DNA of 64,000 nt from a virus (taxonomy: Duplodnaviria > Caudoviricetes): positions 32,655 to 96,654 of IMG/VR virus record IMGVR_UViG_3300027542_000004. The stretch is one strand, 5' to 3'. Below, piece by piece: positions 17,411 through 64,000 of this stretch. The first letter of the stretch is position 1, and each line of letters begins with the position of its first letter. The translations under genes and the position numbers were made by a program. A model generated the notes under the pieces. It ran no database searches. It saw nothing but the letters and a program-made list of their open reading frames with translations, and was not told where the DNA came from.

Positions 17411-18685
17411 TTATTGTTCAGAAGTTATTTCCTCATTATCAATGGTCAACGCGCAGAAGCCTTTACAAGCTCCACGGAAACCATTGTGGTATTCTTTGGC
17501 AGTCATACGCTTCTTGTTTGGCAACTGCAAAATATCAATCGAAAGCAACATATCCTGACAGGCGACCATCAGTTTGCCATTCTCCCAGAACCATTCTCCG
17601 GGTGCGCGGAAGCCGCGAGGAATGTCAGTAAGACTTGCCTTGTGAATCTTCACATCGGTTGCGGAATCTGCCTCAAGCAACCTTACCGAAGTCCATGCAG
17701 TCGGCACTGACCCTGCGATAGCCGGGGTCTTTGGATATTGTTCGCCACAAATAACTGATGAATGGGCGCGTATGAAGTTATGAACGACTTCTGCGGAATC
17801 AGTCCAACGGATAAAGGCATCATTGCGGTAGAGCTTGGGCGCATGGCTCGGTTGAAAGAAATCGCATATAAGTTCTGACTGCGGAACTCCATTGCACGAA
17901 TGACCAATACGCTGGATTGCATCATCCATCATATCCGCACCGAAATTGCGAAGTCTGATATGCACTTCTTCCGCGCTTTCTTCCGGGCCTATGTAGATTC
18001 CGAGGTTGTTGATGATTTTGCCTGTATCCACACCCTTATCGATTACGAAAGTGGTGATGCCGGTCATCGCGCTTCCGTCCTTGATTGCGGATGTGATAGT
18101 GGATGCGCCCCGGTACATTGGAAGAAGCGATGAATGGAGATTGATGACTCCCCATTTAGGTATGCGGAACAATTCAGATGGTAATATGCAGTATTCAACC
18201 ACAACTCCCAACGTGGGATTCAGATTGCGGATTTTTTGAAGAAAAGATTCTGATTTAAGTTGAAGATGCGATGGCTGATATACAAGAAGACCTGCCTCTT
18301 CCGCATAAACACTGACAGGTGATGGGCAACACTTGTTTCCGCGACCGCAAGGCTTATTCTCCATAGTCACGACAGCAGCCACATCATATCCCTTTTCAAC
18401 GAGCATCTTTAGAGTCGGCACAGCGAAATGTCCGTTTCCGAAAAATACAATCCTGATATTATTCCGATTCACCGGCTTTTCTTGGTCATATTCGGGATAA
18501 GCCGATATTGCGTCTTCCGGAACAATGCTATATCCATCGGCCTGATTGACCTTAACTAAGTAATTGCCATCTTCATCCGGGCAAAGGATTCTGCACGGCA
18601 CGAAAAACTGATTTTCAAATTGGTCGCCGGCGCAATGCCCAACCACATTTACCAAATGACCAACGCGGTATCTTGGAGCTTTCAT
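17411..18685 (-). CDS. fmt: Methionyl-tRNA formyltransferase-like protein with extra N-terminal domain
   Basis: IVFFG..F, VVT..NKP.GRG, SPV, INLHSSLLP.YRGA, TGIT, DTG, APKL, LQLPNKKRM; ATGA overlap with upstream HTH gene. Confidence 0.85.
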   Translation of the reverse strand: MKAPRYRVGHLVNVVGHCAGDQFENQFFVPCRILCPDEDGNYLVKVNQADGYSIVPEDAISAYPEYDQEKPVNRNNIRIVFFGNGHFAVPTLKMLVEKGYDVAAVVTMENKPCGRGNKCCPSPVSVYAEEAGLLVYQPSHLQLKSESFLQKIRNLNPTLGVVVEYCILPSELFRIPKWGVINLHSSLLPMYRGASTITSAIKDGSAMTGITTFVIDKGVDTGKIINNLGIYIGPEESAEEVHIRLRNFGADMMDDAIQRIGHSCNGVPQSELICDFFQPSHAPKLYRNDAFIRWTDSAEVVHNFIRAHSSVICGEQYPKTPAIAGSVPTAWTSVRLLEADSATDVKIHKASLTDIPRGFRAPGEWFWENGKLMVACQDMLLSIDILQLPNKKRMTAKEYHNGFRGACKGFCALTIDNEEITSEQ

Positions 18686-18951
18686 TTTGATGAACCGGTC
18701 TGGATGTCGATACGTGCGCCGCACTGCGGACAGATGATGATAGCGGAATTTGGCTCAAGGTAATCTGTGAATAAAGAAGATACCGGCACTTCCAGCACTT
18801 TTGCAATTCGCTCAAGCGTGGATATGTTAGGATTGCCCTTTTCATTAACGATGTTGCCGAGTGTCTGAGGGGTGATTCCCATCTTTTCCGCGAGGCTTTT
18901 AAGGGTCATGCCCTTAGCAGCGACAATGTTCTTGATTCTGAATTTTGCCAT
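18682..18951 (-). CDS. Xre-family HTH regulator with CPQCG motif
   Basis: LAEKMGITPQTL...GNPNISTLERIA. Confidence 0.9.
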   Translation of the reverse strand: MAKFRIKNIVAAKGMTLKSLAEKMGITPQTLGNIVNEKGNPNISTLERIAKVLEVPVSSLFTDYLEPNSAIIICPQCGARIDIQTGSSK

Positions 18952-20772: not shown

Positions 20773-21555
20773 ATGAGAATCAAGAAGCAAAAATCGTTCA
20801 AGAACGGTACGGTGTACTGCCTTGAGCTGGAAGACGGAATGTTGGTTGAAACAACCGACACCTTTCTGCCTTACTACACCAAAGACGCAATCGGTCGCAA
20901 GCAGAATTTTCTTGACAACAATCAGCTCGGTAGTCGTGCGGAACGCTGGATGATAGGCGTATCCACAATGAGCGGATGCCCGGTTCATTGCAAATTCTGC
21001 GCTACCGGCAACATGAAGCGTTGGCGCAATCTTACGGCTGACGAAATTGTCGGTCAGGTGGAATTTGCCATCGCACAGGCAGGATTCAACCCGGCAGATG
21101 CCCGCGAGTTCAAAATCAACTACACGCGCATGGGTGAGCCTTTCTTGAACATCGACGCAGTTAAAGAAGCCATTGCCCGCATCACGGAAAAATATCCGAA
21201 CACACATCACTACGTTTCAACCATCGGCATCGCCGGCAGCGATTTCTCTTTTGTCAAGGGGAACGTGACGCTCCAGATAAGTCTGCATAGCTTTGACGAT
21301 GACAAGCGTAACTGGCTTATCCCTTACCCCAAGAAGATGACCATCGAAGAGCTGGGGCGCATACGCACGGAAAGCAACCTTAAAACGACCATCAACCTTA
21401 CACTCGTTGACGAGTCGGATTTCGATGCTGAAAAGCTGGCGAAGTATTTTGACAAGGATTATTTCTTTGTCAAGCTATCGCCCATCAATCCCAACAGCAT
21501 ATCGGAAAAGAACAATCTCGGTAACGGTGTTATCGAGGGCGTGAACATTGTATAA
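20773..21555 (+). CDS. RlmN/Cfr-like radical SAM protein lacking its C-terminal tail
   Basis: DG..VET, VS...GCPVHCKFC.TG, RNLTADEI..Q, MGEP, VST.G, ISLH. Confidence 0.85.
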   Translation: MRIKKQKSFKNGTVYCLELEDGMLVETTDTFLPYYTKDAIGRKQNFLDNNQLGSRAERWMIGVSTMSGCPVHCKFCATGNMKRWRNLTADEIVGQVEFAIAQAGFNPADAREFKINYTRMGEPFLNIDAVKEAIARITEKYPNTHHYVSTIGIAGSDFSFVKGNVTLQISLHSFDDDKRNWLIPYPKKMTIEELGRIRTESNLKTTINLTLVDESDFDAEKLAKYFDKDYFFVKLSPINPNSISEKNNLGNGVIEGVNIV

Positions 21556-21575
21556 CCACTTAACACAACAACCAC

Positions 21576-21695
21576 ATGGAAGCAATCAAGAAACAGCTTG
21601 AATCTATGGGTTACGATTATGCGGTAGCAATCGCAACCAAGTCGGAAATCGAAAACGGTGCTGCCTGCGGACAGCTCGCAATCATCGCCGAGTAA
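21576..21695 (+). CDS. 39-aa peptide carrying the RlmN-type AACGQL motif
   Basis: MEAIKKQLESMGYDYAVAIATKSEIENGAACGQLAIIAE; own A/C-rich leader; different frame from the upstream gene. Confidence 0.85.
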   Translation: MEAIKKQLESMGYDYAVAIATKSEIENGAACGQLAIIAE

Positions 21696-21758
21696 CCCGG
21701 AAACCGGCGGCTTGAGGAGTGCTTCGGTATTCTTCAAGTCGCCATTATCCTTGAAACG

Positions 21759-22223
21759 ATGGAAAAATTTCTATTGATACTCCCGGTGGTTGGTATGATT
21801 GTCGTTGTGGGCATCCCACTATGGGCATACCTGTCTTTCAAATCATACAAGCGGAAACTGCGCCGCGTCTATGACGAAATCAAGATTGGCGACCGCTACA
21901 AGTTTGAAATGCCGCCTCTACATCCGTTTGACGAATCTCATGTTTACAAGGCGACTATTATAGGCAAGACGTTAGCCCGTGGAAAATCCCCGTGGGTGCA
22001 ATATCGCTACGATGATATGCTATATCCGCAATACGAGAATAGATTTGCCAAGACCATCACAAAAGGTCTGATGGAAAGCCTTATCGAAGAGGCGAAGAAG
22101 CACATCGCCGAACACGAAAGCAACCCCAAATCAATGGTACATCCGGAGGTTCTTGCGCATTGGAAGAAAATCGCGCAAGGCATCCCTCCTTTCGGATACA
22201 AGGTCGTAGATGAAAAATTCTGA
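21759..22223 (+). CDS. Hypothetical membrane protein, possibly chimeric
   Basis: N-terminal TM segment; abrupt change of character at YDD/MLY. Confidence 0.55.
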   Translation: MEKFLLILPVVGMIVVVGIPLWAYLSFKSYKRKLRRVYDEIKIGDRYKFEMPPLHPFDESHVYKATIIGKTLARGKSPWVQYRYDDMLYPQYENRFAKTITKGLMESLIEEAKKHIAEHESNPKSMVHPEVLAHWKKIAQGIPPFGYKVVDEKF

Positions 22224-26379: not shown

Positions 26380-26548
26380 GAATACATCCCGCGACTGCTA
26401 CCGCCGTATGCGCCCCGCCTATGAACGCGAAGACGGCACTATGGTATTTCCATCATGGCATGACATTCCACGGATAGCAAGGGTGAACAAACGACTACTC
26501 AGATACATTAACCGATTAAGCAATGAAGACAAAGAAAAACTTCTTTAA
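26342..26548 (+). CDS. Hypothetical protein
   Basis: MKIRQAKK start. Confidence 0.55.
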   Translation: MKIRQAKKILLGKNTSRDCYRRMRPAYEREDGTMVFPSWHDIPRIARVNKRLLRYINRLSNEDKEKLL

Positions 26549-27356
26549 GGGTAAATCCTTATACCGACCCACCGGCAAGGCTGGCGAATATTCCGCTTGG
26601 GCTTGCAACTTCTATACCGGGTGTTCAAATAACTGTTCATACTGCTACTGCAAGCGTGGCGTTATGAGCCATGTATGGAGCGAAGAGCCGATGTTTAAAA
26701 AATGCTTCAAGGACAACGACCATGCCATAGCGGTGTTTGAAAAGGAAATGCTCGCAAACATCGACGAACTGCGTAAGACGGGCATCTTTTTCAGCTTCAC
26801 TACCGACCCCATGATACCCGGCAAGACGCTTGAGCTTACGATGGAAGCGGTCAGCCTTGGGCTGCGTAATGACGTGCCGGTGCAGATACTTACCAAACGT
26901 GCGGATTGGCTTGATGCCGAGACGTGGAAAGCCATGTGCGCTACCATCAATCCCGACTACAAGAAAATCGCCATTGGCTTCACACTGACAAGGCGTGATG
27001 ACCTTGAGCCGGGTGCAAGTCCGCATACGGAACGCATAGCCGCCATGAAGCGTTGTCACGAACTGGGATGTCACACTTTCGCAAGTATTGAGCCGATTGT
27101 CGATATAGCCAATTCGGAATGGGCGATGAGTGATGCCTATCCCTACTGCGAACTGTTCAAGGTTGGTCTGATGAGCGGCGGCGCGAAACCCGACAAGCAC
27201 GAACTGAAAACACTTGTTGACAGATGGAATAGCACACTTGACAAGTCAGGCAAGAAGATATATTGGAAGCAGAGCGTAGTTGACTATCTGGGCGATGATT
27301 TCACGTTCTGGATGGACTCCTGCGTAGATGCCGACTACAACATATTCGACTATTAG
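26523..27356 (+). CDS. Radical SAM protein, spore-photoproduct-lyase-like family
   Basis: YTGCSNNCSYCY, TTDP, ILTK, LEPGAS..ER, SIEP. Confidence 0.8.
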   Translation: MKTKKNFFKGKSLYRPTGKAGEYSAWACNFYTGCSNNCSYCYCKRGVMSHVWSEEPMFKKCFKDNDHAIAVFEKEMLANIDELRKTGIFFSFTTDPMIPGKTLELTMEAVSLGLRNDVPVQILTKRADWLDAETWKAMCATINPDYKKIAIGFTLTRRDDLEPGASPHTERIAAMKRCHELGCHTFASIEPIVDIANSEWAMSDAYPYCELFKVGLMSGGAKPDKHELKTLVDRWNSTLDKSGKKIYWKQSVVDYLGDDFTFWMDSCVDADYNIFDY

Positions 27357-62340: not shown

Positions 62341-62374
62341 TATTTTGCAAGTGGTTGATTTTCAGTAAGGGTTG

Positions 62375-62461
62375 CGGAAAGACAGGGATTCGAACCCTGG
62401 GTACACAGAAGTGTACAACGGTTTTCGAGACCGTCCCGTTCGACCGCTCCGGCATCTTTCC
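62375..62461 (-). tRNA. tRNA-Ser (anticodon CGA), prophage integration site
   Basis: GGAAAGA/TCTTTCC acceptor stem, ACGGT-CTCGAAA-ACCGT anticodon arm, long variable arm, GGTTCGAATCC. Confidence 0.95.
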
Positions 62462-62701: not shown

Positions 62702-63877
62702 TTATTCATTGTCAAGATGAATAAGTCTTTTGAAACATTTGATCAATTCTGCATCGCCTGTGTGTTTGCCTTTATCCTCACTGATTTTGCACGTCTGACA
62801 ATAGAATGGCCAAGACTCCGTGATTTTGACATCTGTGAGTTTTATGACGATGTTCATTGGCTTTATTCCATCGAAGTCATTGGTGAAGTGCGTGCCAATT
62901 CCGAAGGATGGAATACATTTCCCTTTGGCATACTCCTGTATCTCCAATGCCTTGTCCACGTTTAGGCCGTTGCTGAAGACCACCTGCTTTGTGGTCGGGT
63001 CGATTTTAAGGGATTCATACTTGCTGATTATCAAATCAAGCTGCTCGAAATTGTCGCCGCTGTCAACCCTAAGCCCTTTGAACATGTTGGCATAATCCTC
63101 GGAGAAATTCAAATTGAATATCTGCCAGCCATACGTGTCGTAAAGAAAAATACCCAAAGCTCCACGATAGGTCTGCGCCCATCTCTCCATTGCTATATGG
63201 TTTGCCATTTGCGGGCCATACATCCCGGCAATAGCACTGATGAATTCATGGGCCATAGTCCCGATGGGAGTGAGGTCGTATTTCATTGCGAAGTAGACGT
63301 TGCTTGTGCCCATGAAACATCCCGGCATACTTCTTGAACGTTGGCATTCCGCCATGGCACCAATCGTCAGATCCTGGGCTTTGAGTGAAGCCCTCCGTCG
63401 TGTCCCCATGTCGCTGAATGTGCAGCCGGCTTCAAGCAGTCTCTTGGCCTTTTCATGGGATTTGTCGTAATATCCGGCAAAATCAAATTCCGCAGCCTGC
63501 CCCGTCATTTCGTAGTATAGCTCGGAGATTATGGCCAGAACCTTTACTTCAAGCAGAATTGTATTGCTCCAGCATCCTTCAAATTCCACAAGCAGATGTC
63601 CTTCCTCATTCTGTGAAGCCTTTACCCAATGACGACTGTATCGGAATCCACGCAAGAAGTTGTAGAACCATGCCGGGATATACCGGCATCTGTAGCGCAT
63701 AAATGCAATTTCTTCCTCTGTGATGGTCAAGGTTTCCAAGAGTGCGACCTGCCGCATCAACTCTTCTGCAAAGCCGGAAGGGTATACCGTATTGTTGCGG
63801 TCGTTGAATCTGTATTTCACCTGAGCACGTGGAAAGTTTTCAATCACGGCGCAGCACATTGTGAATTTATATAACAA
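62702..63877 (-). CDS. pncB: Nicotinate phosphoribosyltransferase (host), N-terminus apparently disrupted
   Basis: LYKFTM, D.GTRRR, GTSN, GTMAHE, R.DSGD, SFGIGT. Confidence 0.88.
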   Translation of the reverse strand: MLYKFTMCCAVIENFPRAQVKYRFNDRNNTVYPSGFAEELMRQVALLETLTITEEEIAFMRYRCRYIPAWFYNFLRGFRYSRHWVKASQNEEGHLLVEFEGCWSNTILLEVKVLAIISELYYEMTGQAAEFDFAGYYDKSHEKAKRLLEAGCTFSDMGTRRRASLKAQDLTIGAMAECQRSRSMPGCFMGTSNVYFAMKYDLTPIGTMAHEFISAIAGMYGPQMANHIAMERWAQTYRGALGIFLYDTYGWQIFNLNFSEDYANMFKGLRVDSGDNFEQLDLIISKYESLKIDPTTKQVVFSNGLNVDKALEIQEYAKGKCIPSFGIGTHFTNDFDGIKPMNIVIKLTDVKITESWPFYCQTCKISEDKGKHTGDAELIKCFKRLIHLDNE

Positions 63878-64000
63878 TAGTTCGTTAAAAATCTGAATTA
63901 GAAATTTATGCTGTAAAACATATCCATATTATTGATTTCCAACAAAATAAGTGTCAATAAAATTTGGTCAAGTGCCAAATTTTTCGTAACTTTATAGTTG

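Follow-up and report, generated by a model that had tools for sequence, protein, structure and literature searches.

A conserved split RlmN-like radical SAM pair in phages, possibly a C-methylase of NAD-related nucleotides with a replaceable cysteine subunit

A stretch of Caudoviricetes DNA of 64,000 nucleotides, hereafter called the window and itself part of a 96.7-kb virus record, carries two genes that divide between them the parts of an RlmN-type radical SAM enzyme (Table 1). The larger gene encodes the enzyme core, and the methyl-carrier cysteine is supplied by a separate peptide. This split arrangement is kept across distant phages, and the cores lack the resolving cysteine (C118) of RlmN. 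We tentatively propose that the pair forms a putative two-subunit radical C-methylase of an NAD-related nucleotide whose cysteine subunit is replaceable, a reading to which we assign somewhat less than even confidence.

Table 1. Features of the core and peptide genes, by position in the window.
Feature	Position	Strand	Basis or conservation
Large subunit, 260-aa RlmN-derived radical SAM core	20773..21555	+	Domain searches, AlphaFold model
Gly62 codon, position of the RlmN resolving Cys118	20956..20958	+	Alignment; G in 63/63
CxxxCxxC cluster-binding motif (C69, C73, C76)	20977..21000	+	
Arg119 of TRMGEP, where RlmN has Gly177	21127..21129	+	R in 63/63
Spacer and leader of the peptide gene, 20 nt, A/C-rich	21556..21575	+	
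Small subunit, 39-aa acidic peptide (helix, beta-strand, AACGQL loop), homologous to the RlmN C-terminal piece	21576..21695	+	
Glu24 of the peptide, seven residues ahead of the carrier Cys; candidate replacement base	21645..21647	+	
Cys31 of the peptide, equivalent of the RlmN methyl-carrier Cys355	21666..21668	+	Kept in 239/240 peptides
17-pair hairpin just 3' of the peptide stop; possible transcript end	21706..21743	+	Consensus match only

The original prediction held that the larger open reading frame bears the hallmarks of RlmN and stops ahead of the C-terminal motif, and both points are borne out by the reading frame and its motifs (VET, CPVHCKFC, MGEP and SLH). The methyl-carrier loop and the RlmN N-terminal domain are both absent. 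Domain searches return a Pfam radical SAM match (E 4e-10), a sub-threshold match to TIGR00048 (E 5e-23; 82 bits against a cut-off of 290) and a match to the Cfr profile that is also below its cut-off, and the core matches the RlmN profile of 355 positions from 75 to 299 only. When the AlphaFold model of the core (pLDDT 89, with the final six residues disordered) was used in a fold search, the top 11 matches were RlmN or Cfr. Near the top of a viral fold search stood only unnamed radical SAM proteins, and an Atlas search yielded only unnamed radical SAM clusters. A core gene 99% identical to that of the window is present in a Muribaculaceae genome. Some cores in the family reach ~600 amino acids (P0124, L130, L203), and P0124 has, at its cluster motif, an intein that contains a LAGLIDADG domain.

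Alignment with E. coli RlmN equates G62 with C118, T118-R119 with M176-G177, Q168 with A231, K204 with R274 and N208 with E278, and the phage residues at the five positions compared are invariant among 63 aligned enzymes. Residues for cysteine methylation and SAM binding, namely E26 (RlmN E105), E122, S149, S170, H172 and N239, are kept in 62 or 63 of these enzymes; N307 and N312 of RlmN also served as reference positions in this comparison. The basic residues R58, R119, K204 and K234 line the barrel of the core.

The peptide gene lies where the original prediction placed it, as evident by the open reading frames: it is separate, 20 nucleotides on, in another frame and behind its own A/C-rich leader. 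Its product ends EIENGAACGQLAIIAE (AACGQLAIIAE). In one genome the RlmN profile spans core and peptide across two stops, and a profile built from the peptides finds the C-termini of two fused relatives. The same profile yields nothing significant against the PDB, and a weak match (probability 19%) to one RlmN-like protein profile. Six residues of the peptide are invariant, among them E24, C31 and G32, and of 60 free peptides 59 have the Glu24 equivalent. One peptide lacks the cysteine and two read AACSQ. Across 60 peptide cores the mean pN is 0.20 and pS is 0.77; by this measure the peptide is under purifying selection. A Shine-Dalgarno-like motif precedes the ATG in 39 of 60 peptide genes. 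The core has a median net charge of +1 and the peptide one of -4. Scans for promoters and terminators gave results no better than chance overall.

The division into two genes is a trait of the family. In a first viral set, for which 80 of 203 loci found were kept, every core ends at the same place; an AACGQ peptide follows 17-20 nucleotides on in 71 loci and an AACSQ peptide in 2, and in 7 the peptide lies ~1.2 kb on, behind inserted genes. A wider census of viral, genome, metagenome and cultured-phage collections comprises 288 loci, many of them near-identical, of which 246 score at least 300 bits. Among these 246 none is fused, and the peptide is separate in 240: adjacent in 185, further downstream in 53 and upstream in 2. 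The other 6 have no peptide within the DNA fetched (2-1947 nucleotides available). A check on the conservation of the two-gene layout, proposed at the outset, thus comes out in its favor. The peptide gene can stand up to 2.7 kb from the core, downstream or upstream, and 56 of the 57 genomes with a match hold one copy of it. Among the cultured carriers are Kehishuvirus tikkala, Moorella MTATph1, Vibrio D479, Pectobacterium Arno18 and Yersinia P778, and the split is kept from Bacteroides phages to those of Moorella, Vibrio, Pectobacterium and Yersinia.

It could be argued that the pair is one ordinary gene that looks broken because of an assembly error, pseudogene formation or a programmed frameshift. 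The arrangement does resemble a broken gene, and the peptide without cysteine and the two with AACSQ fit such a view. However, the split persists in distant phages with genes inserted between the parts, and the peptide has Shine-Dalgarno sites and bears the mark of purifying selection. Adjacent peptides occupy frames 0, 1 and 2 in 13, 38 and 134 cases, respectively, and because all three frames are used a fixed frameshift is excluded. Sequencing error, frameshifting and readthrough were considered and are ruled out by the conserved stop together with the 246-locus census, as is a recent break. In the contigs of four sequencing runs (mostly probably DNA) the spacer has no joint or indel. We regard an artefact of this kind as extremely improbable.

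Several observations concern the parts of the pair at other loci. A module of a radical SAM gene with a widened cluster motif (C-x11-C-x2-C) and a small class I methyltransferase gene is inserted between core and peptide at L074-L080, L098, L106-L118 and L175. In L319 (G065, 304 kb) and L318 a peptide gene was found without a core, the record being rated complete; the L319 peptide gene lies downstream of what we take, from reading its sequence, to be a CoaBC-type flavoprotein-like gene. A clade of 11 members with Gly at C118 and K[QE]MGDP (P0185, P0187, P0193, P0194, P0199, P0203, P0206, P0226, P0232, P0241, P0269) keeps the last helix and strand, and its chain ends ahead of the Cys loop. This clade may represent a second split point or a loss of the carrier cysteine, and no loci for it were found in viral contigs.

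Co-folding, which had been named as a check on the original prediction, places the peptide in the active site. With the cluster and SAM included, core and peptide gave a score of 0.79, as compared to 0.01 for the best control, with at least 62% contact agreement across runs and a partner pLDDT of at least 75. The mark applied was passed by 58 of 80 solved pairs and by 2 of 110 mismatched pairs, counts that are only roughly applicable here. In the model, residues 13-17 of the peptide pair with the core strand formed by 231-236, and about 150 contacts form an interface with core residues 24-26, 76-81 and 118-120 and the otherwise disordered tail. The peptide is predicted to dock as the missing C-terminal piece of RlmN, although a pass is possible from likeness to solved RlmN and shows fit rather than binding in the cell.

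The loss of the resolving cysteine (C118/C105 in RlmN/Cfr), which the original prediction had read as a glycine at the C118 position, holds for every aligned enzyme (Table 1). The only invariant cysteines of the core are the three that bind the cluster, and position 65 varies among T, C and V; a substitute cysteine in the core, which had been raised as a counter-explanation, was therefore rejected. According to the available text of two reports, C118 of RlmN acts as the base in resolving the crosslink, and variants at this position stay crosslinked (PMC9692996; 10.64898/2026.02.27.707579). Relatives that carry the cysteine in the same chain (the spurious row L102 left out) served as the comparison set. 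RMGEP is present in all 53 of those without C118, and 50 have a Glu seven residues ahead of the cysteine, as compared to neither this Arg nor this Glu in any of the 29 with C118. The conserved Glu on the carrier loop may be a replacement for C118, and the Arg of RMGEP and this Glu together may do its job.

A quick tree of 154 cores, from which three intein-bearing rows and near-duplicates were left out, bears on the order of these changes. The 36 rows that hold every C118-bearing sequence group together with a support of 97, and two fused clades without C118, each with a support of 100, fall outside the split group, which is itself weakly supported (48). With the RlmN-like rows as root, the tree suggests that C118 was lost first and once, with Arg and Glu gained. 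As C118 loss and the Arg/Glu gain would then be one event, the covariation does not amount to many independent events. By the same tree the cysteine loss is older than the split. The original idea of a single cause behind both the split and the missing cysteine is not supported, since single-chain relatives without C118 lie outside the split group. Short phage RlmN-like proteins that keep C118 and have no N-terminal domain were also seen (L087-L092, P0211, P0216); one adjoins a PRPS/PRTase pair and others are fused to NUDIX or HD domains.

Clues to the substrate come from parts of RlmN that are missing and from the genes nearby. The RlmN segment R344-K345-T346-R347 reads AIAT in the peptide. 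K345-T346-R347 lie near the target base, and so does R344 as judged by its Cfr equivalent R327, according to the available text of 10.1101/2025.09.18.677109. An ordinary full RlmN is also present in 11 of 16 cellular carriers. For counts of neighbors, redundancy was reduced by placing 172 loci in 54 groups (lineages) at 80% identity. Of the 54 lineages, 19 have an NAD-type gene within 4-6 kb of the pair, and in 11 it is no more than 300 nucleotides away. Since NUDIX alone is not NAD-specific, the count without it is 14 of 54; a phosphoribosyltransferase (PRTase) is nearby in 13 groups. The remaining 35 lineages, that of the window included, have no NAD-type gene nearby. Pfam families among the 141 nearest genes of 45 groups are led by radical SAM (13), after which NAPRTase, NUDIX and nucleotidyltransferase (7 each) are the commonest; NAMPT_N (5), isochorismatase (3) and RNA ligase (2) are also represented. 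The gene order at L134 is NAPRT, NadE, core, peptide, NMN adenylyltransferase, NAD kinase and NrtR, and at L106 and L133 the pair is among genes for NadE, NadD, NAD kinase or nicotinamidase. On the incomplete contigs L303 and L316 a peptide gene without a detected core lies between NMNAT-NUDIX and NAMPT.

At the level of whole records, a PRTase is present in 16 of 44 carrier virus records and in 4 of 7 records with fused relatives, a sample in which large phages are over-represented; none was seen in 28 of the 44, some of which are fragments. Published rates, in the available text of PMC13464706, are about 4.3% for NARP1 and 1.1% for NARP2. Among PRTase-bearing IMG/VR records the PRTase is within 5 kb in 9 of 13, as compared to 1.3 expected from length alone, a figure that overstates the link because phage accessory genes cluster anyway and the loci are related. 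A PRTase turned up in 24 of the 53 loci of a peptide-motif scan, which partly overlaps the earlier loci, and for 18 of the 44 distinct peptides. No PRTase was seen near the fused clades without C118 in 30 loci. Instead, these carry an isochorismatase-family hydrolase (19 of 30) and a thioredoxin-reductase-like flavoprotein without CxxC (19 of 30), which suggests a small-molecule pathway for the fused sister clade as well. From gene context and sequence comparison, it seems that the pair probably acts on an NAD-type nucleotide rather than on RNA.

Some neighboring genes deserve a separate record. The window's own phage has, ~46 kb off and outside the window (G000:C1:5125-7718), a NAMPT-like gene followed by a PRPS-like gene (the latter below cut-off), an order that matches the NARP1 layout. 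At the end of the record a tRNA-Ser gene (window 62374-62461) is followed by an NAPRTase (pncB-like) gene (62705-63928, minus strand), and this end is possibly the host side of a prophage border. TerC/TerD genes lie 3' of the pair in Yersinia phage P778, and a thymidylate synthase gene flanks the pair in Moorella MTATph1, with a homolog in L170 (the loci concerned are L085, L082 and L170). In CPR and DPANN genomes (L142-L169; P0195, P0214, P0227), the isochorismatase-family hydrolase, the CxxC-less thioredoxin-reductase-like protein and a single-chain RlmN-like enzyme without C118 form a conserved operon, with fusions, and thymidylate synthase adjoins it in 3 loci. Within the window, ~3.1 kb is missing at 21996-22016 relative to L001, L002, L003, L093 and L094, between two copies of a ~21-nucleotide stretch; the absent segment held another radical SAM gene, and the open reading frame at 21759-22223 is chimera-like. 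A second radical SAM gene at 26523-27356 (plus strand) is weakly PA0069/spore-photoproduct-lyase-like, and no tie to the pair was seen. The gene at 17411-18724 (minus strand) encodes an Fmt-like formyltransferase with an N-terminal extension.

The mechanism that we tentatively favor would begin as in RlmN. The peptide strand joins the core sheet in the model, which places Cys31 at the iron-sulfur site. By analogy with RlmN, SAM would methylate Cys31, and the 5'-deoxyadenosyl radical from a second SAM would convert the methylated residue to a Cys-S-CH2 radical. Gene context and the lost RNA-binding parts suggest that this radical would attack a small NAD-related nucleotide at an aromatic carbon, the acceptor ring perhaps being the adenine or pyridine of NAD, NaAD, NMN or ADP-ribose. 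A pyridinium ring is a good acceptor for a radical of the Cys-S-CH2 type and gives an acidic adduct; because the adduct is acidic, a carboxylate could stand in for the thiolate. From the covariation, Glu24 of the peptide, probably aided by Arg119, would replace Cys118 as the base and free the C-methylated nucleotide. Keeping the cysteine piece separate may allow it to be swapped once damaged or trapped as a dead-end adduct.

This proposal has weaknesses. The Arg/Glu/C118 pattern may reflect one ancestral event, the Glu-Arg pair could be a mere salt bridge, fused clades without C118 lack a PRTase, and 35 of 54 lineages lack a nearby NAD-type gene. Moreover, the available accounts of RlmN and Cfr indicate that losing the resolving cysteine traps the crosslink. 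The same fact favors a serious rival, which we consider possible but doubtful, wherein the Cys-S-CH2-nucleotide thioether is itself the product, a permanent peptide-nucleotide adduct. The peptide would then be spent in sequestering an NAD-derived molecule or signal, or would deliver the adduct, for tailoring or release, to another radical SAM enzyme or to a methyltransferase. Separability does look selected: besides the absence of fusions in the census, the best 120 of 2059 protein hits include no own-enzyme fusion. Among 76 longer peptide-bearing proteins, drawn from 7999 candidates scored, the peptide is fused to a methyltransferase in 19 and to another radical SAM enzyme in 3, and there is one clean fusion to its core (P0339, one member), two more core-containing rows looking broken. 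Methionine is kept at the junction in 49 of 60 fusions with an N-terminal partner. A second radical SAM gene is near the pair in 15 of 54 lineages, often between enzyme and peptide, Vibrio phage D479 has two tandem units in one peptide, and the L303/L316 peptide stands amid NAD salvage genes with no enzyme found on the fragment. However, a permanent adduct would make single-use enzymes of the fused clades without C118, of P0339 and of the in-cis N-terminal forms P0126 (2 members; pLDDT 45 in AlphaFold without an alignment) and P0152 (46 members). Amplification of the peptide gene, a sign of consumption, was not seen, as evident by its single copy in 56 of 57 genomes; the modeled contacts resemble those of a fixed subunit, and the gain of Glu and Arg suggests that a catalytic step has been replaced. 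We read the peptide as a replaceable subunit. Of the original proposal of a consumable peptide ligated to a nucleic acid or nucleotide, exchangeability fits the rarity of own-enzyme fusions alongside frequent fusion to other neighbors. A small nucleotide is a likelier target than RNA or DNA, because the RNA-binding parts are lost and the context is NAD salvage.

An enzyme that is merely split and still methylates RNA (m2A/m8A or another tRNA or rRNA base) by means of a different base also has points in its favor, in that RlmN and Cfr are the nearest families and folds, R58, R119, K204 and K234 line the barrel, and a fused phage relative with C118 lies amid tRNA genes. We consider it unlikely nonetheless: the N-terminal domain and the RNA-facing basic residues are gone, the peptide is acidic, most cellular carriers already own RlmN, and genes for RNA or RNA enzymes are not leading neighbors (RNA ligase, 2 of 141). 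The pair might instead be RiPP-like, with the enzyme cross-linking or methylating a peptide that is released as the product, as a short gene beside one or two radical SAM genes and a methyltransferase, variable peptide tails and the tandem unit of D479 would fit. This alternative, offered in the original prediction, has become quite improbable, since defining features of RiPP systems are missing. The peptide is homologous to the RlmN C-terminus and conserved along its length, Cys loop included, and it has no leader with a separate variable core unrelated to the enzyme; Pfam and NCBIfam searches found no RRE or SPASM/Twitch domain on the core, which is modeled as a bare core. Of 98 neighbor families, the 25 listed include neither a protease nor a peptide exporter. 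The probability beyond these named readings falls to other substrates.

Class A radical SAM methylases are defined, in the available text of PMC9692996, by a pair of cysteines on a single chain and have RNA as their known substrate, and the split C118-less family has neither the two-cysteine nor the one-chain arrangement. It is kept across phages of at least three bacterial phyla and in small-genome bacteria and archaea, and offers a natural test of the need for a resolving cysteine and of the fate of the crosslink without it. The pair suggests that an as yet undescribed step accompanies NAD salvage, over which phages and hosts are known to be in conflict. Acting with NAD-rebuilding genes, it could render NAD unusable by host NAD-cleaving defenses through C-methylation, or weld NAD-derived immune signals to a disposable peptide; we hold this counter-defense role to be rather doubtful. 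If true, either form would amount to cofactor editing by a radical enzyme whose catalytic subunit can be replaced. The proposal is easily testable, as the chemistry done on a 4-kDa peptide shows in its mass.

No description of a split or C118-less RlmN family was found in the accessible full-text literature (PMC5130265 included). With RlmN and Cfr (TIGR00048; PDB 3RFA, 5HR6, 9P0P) the pair has in common the fold, CxxxCxxC, the E105 equivalent, MGEP, ST, SLH and the AACGQL carrier loop. Unlike those enzymes, which carry the methyl-carrier cysteine in their own chain, the phage pair has a separate gene product for it. The core has Gly for C118, Thr/Arg for M176/G177, Gln for A231 and Asn for E278, no N-terminal domain, and an insertion of ~25 amino acids ahead of the C118 strand. 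By analogy, the pair would resemble RlmN/Cfr in its first steps and yet fail three defining features of that family. Single-chain relatives (P0180, Bacteroides phage Versailles WAK79139 and many CPR/DPANN genomes) are like the pair in the absence of C118 and of the N-terminal domain and in RMGEP ... E-x6-CGQ, but they are one chain and their usual neighbors are not PRTases. The pair is linked to the phage NAD reconstitution pathways NARP1, NARP2 and NARP3 and to NrtR-type NAD salvage operons in that it is often in or beside NAMPT and NMNAT-NUDIX genes, whereas these pathways, in the available descriptions, have no radical SAM step such as that proposed here; 'radical SAM' and 'RlmN' occur 0 times in the accessible text of the NARP3 paper. 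A precedent for a detachable radical part is YfiD/GrcA, the spare part of pyruvate formate-lyase, which is a separate radical-bearing C-terminal piece. As in the phage pair, a small protein supplies the C-terminal radical piece of an enzyme. However, YfiD/GrcA uses a glycyl radical and mends an enzyme that is normally whole, whereas for the phage pair the split is the standing state.
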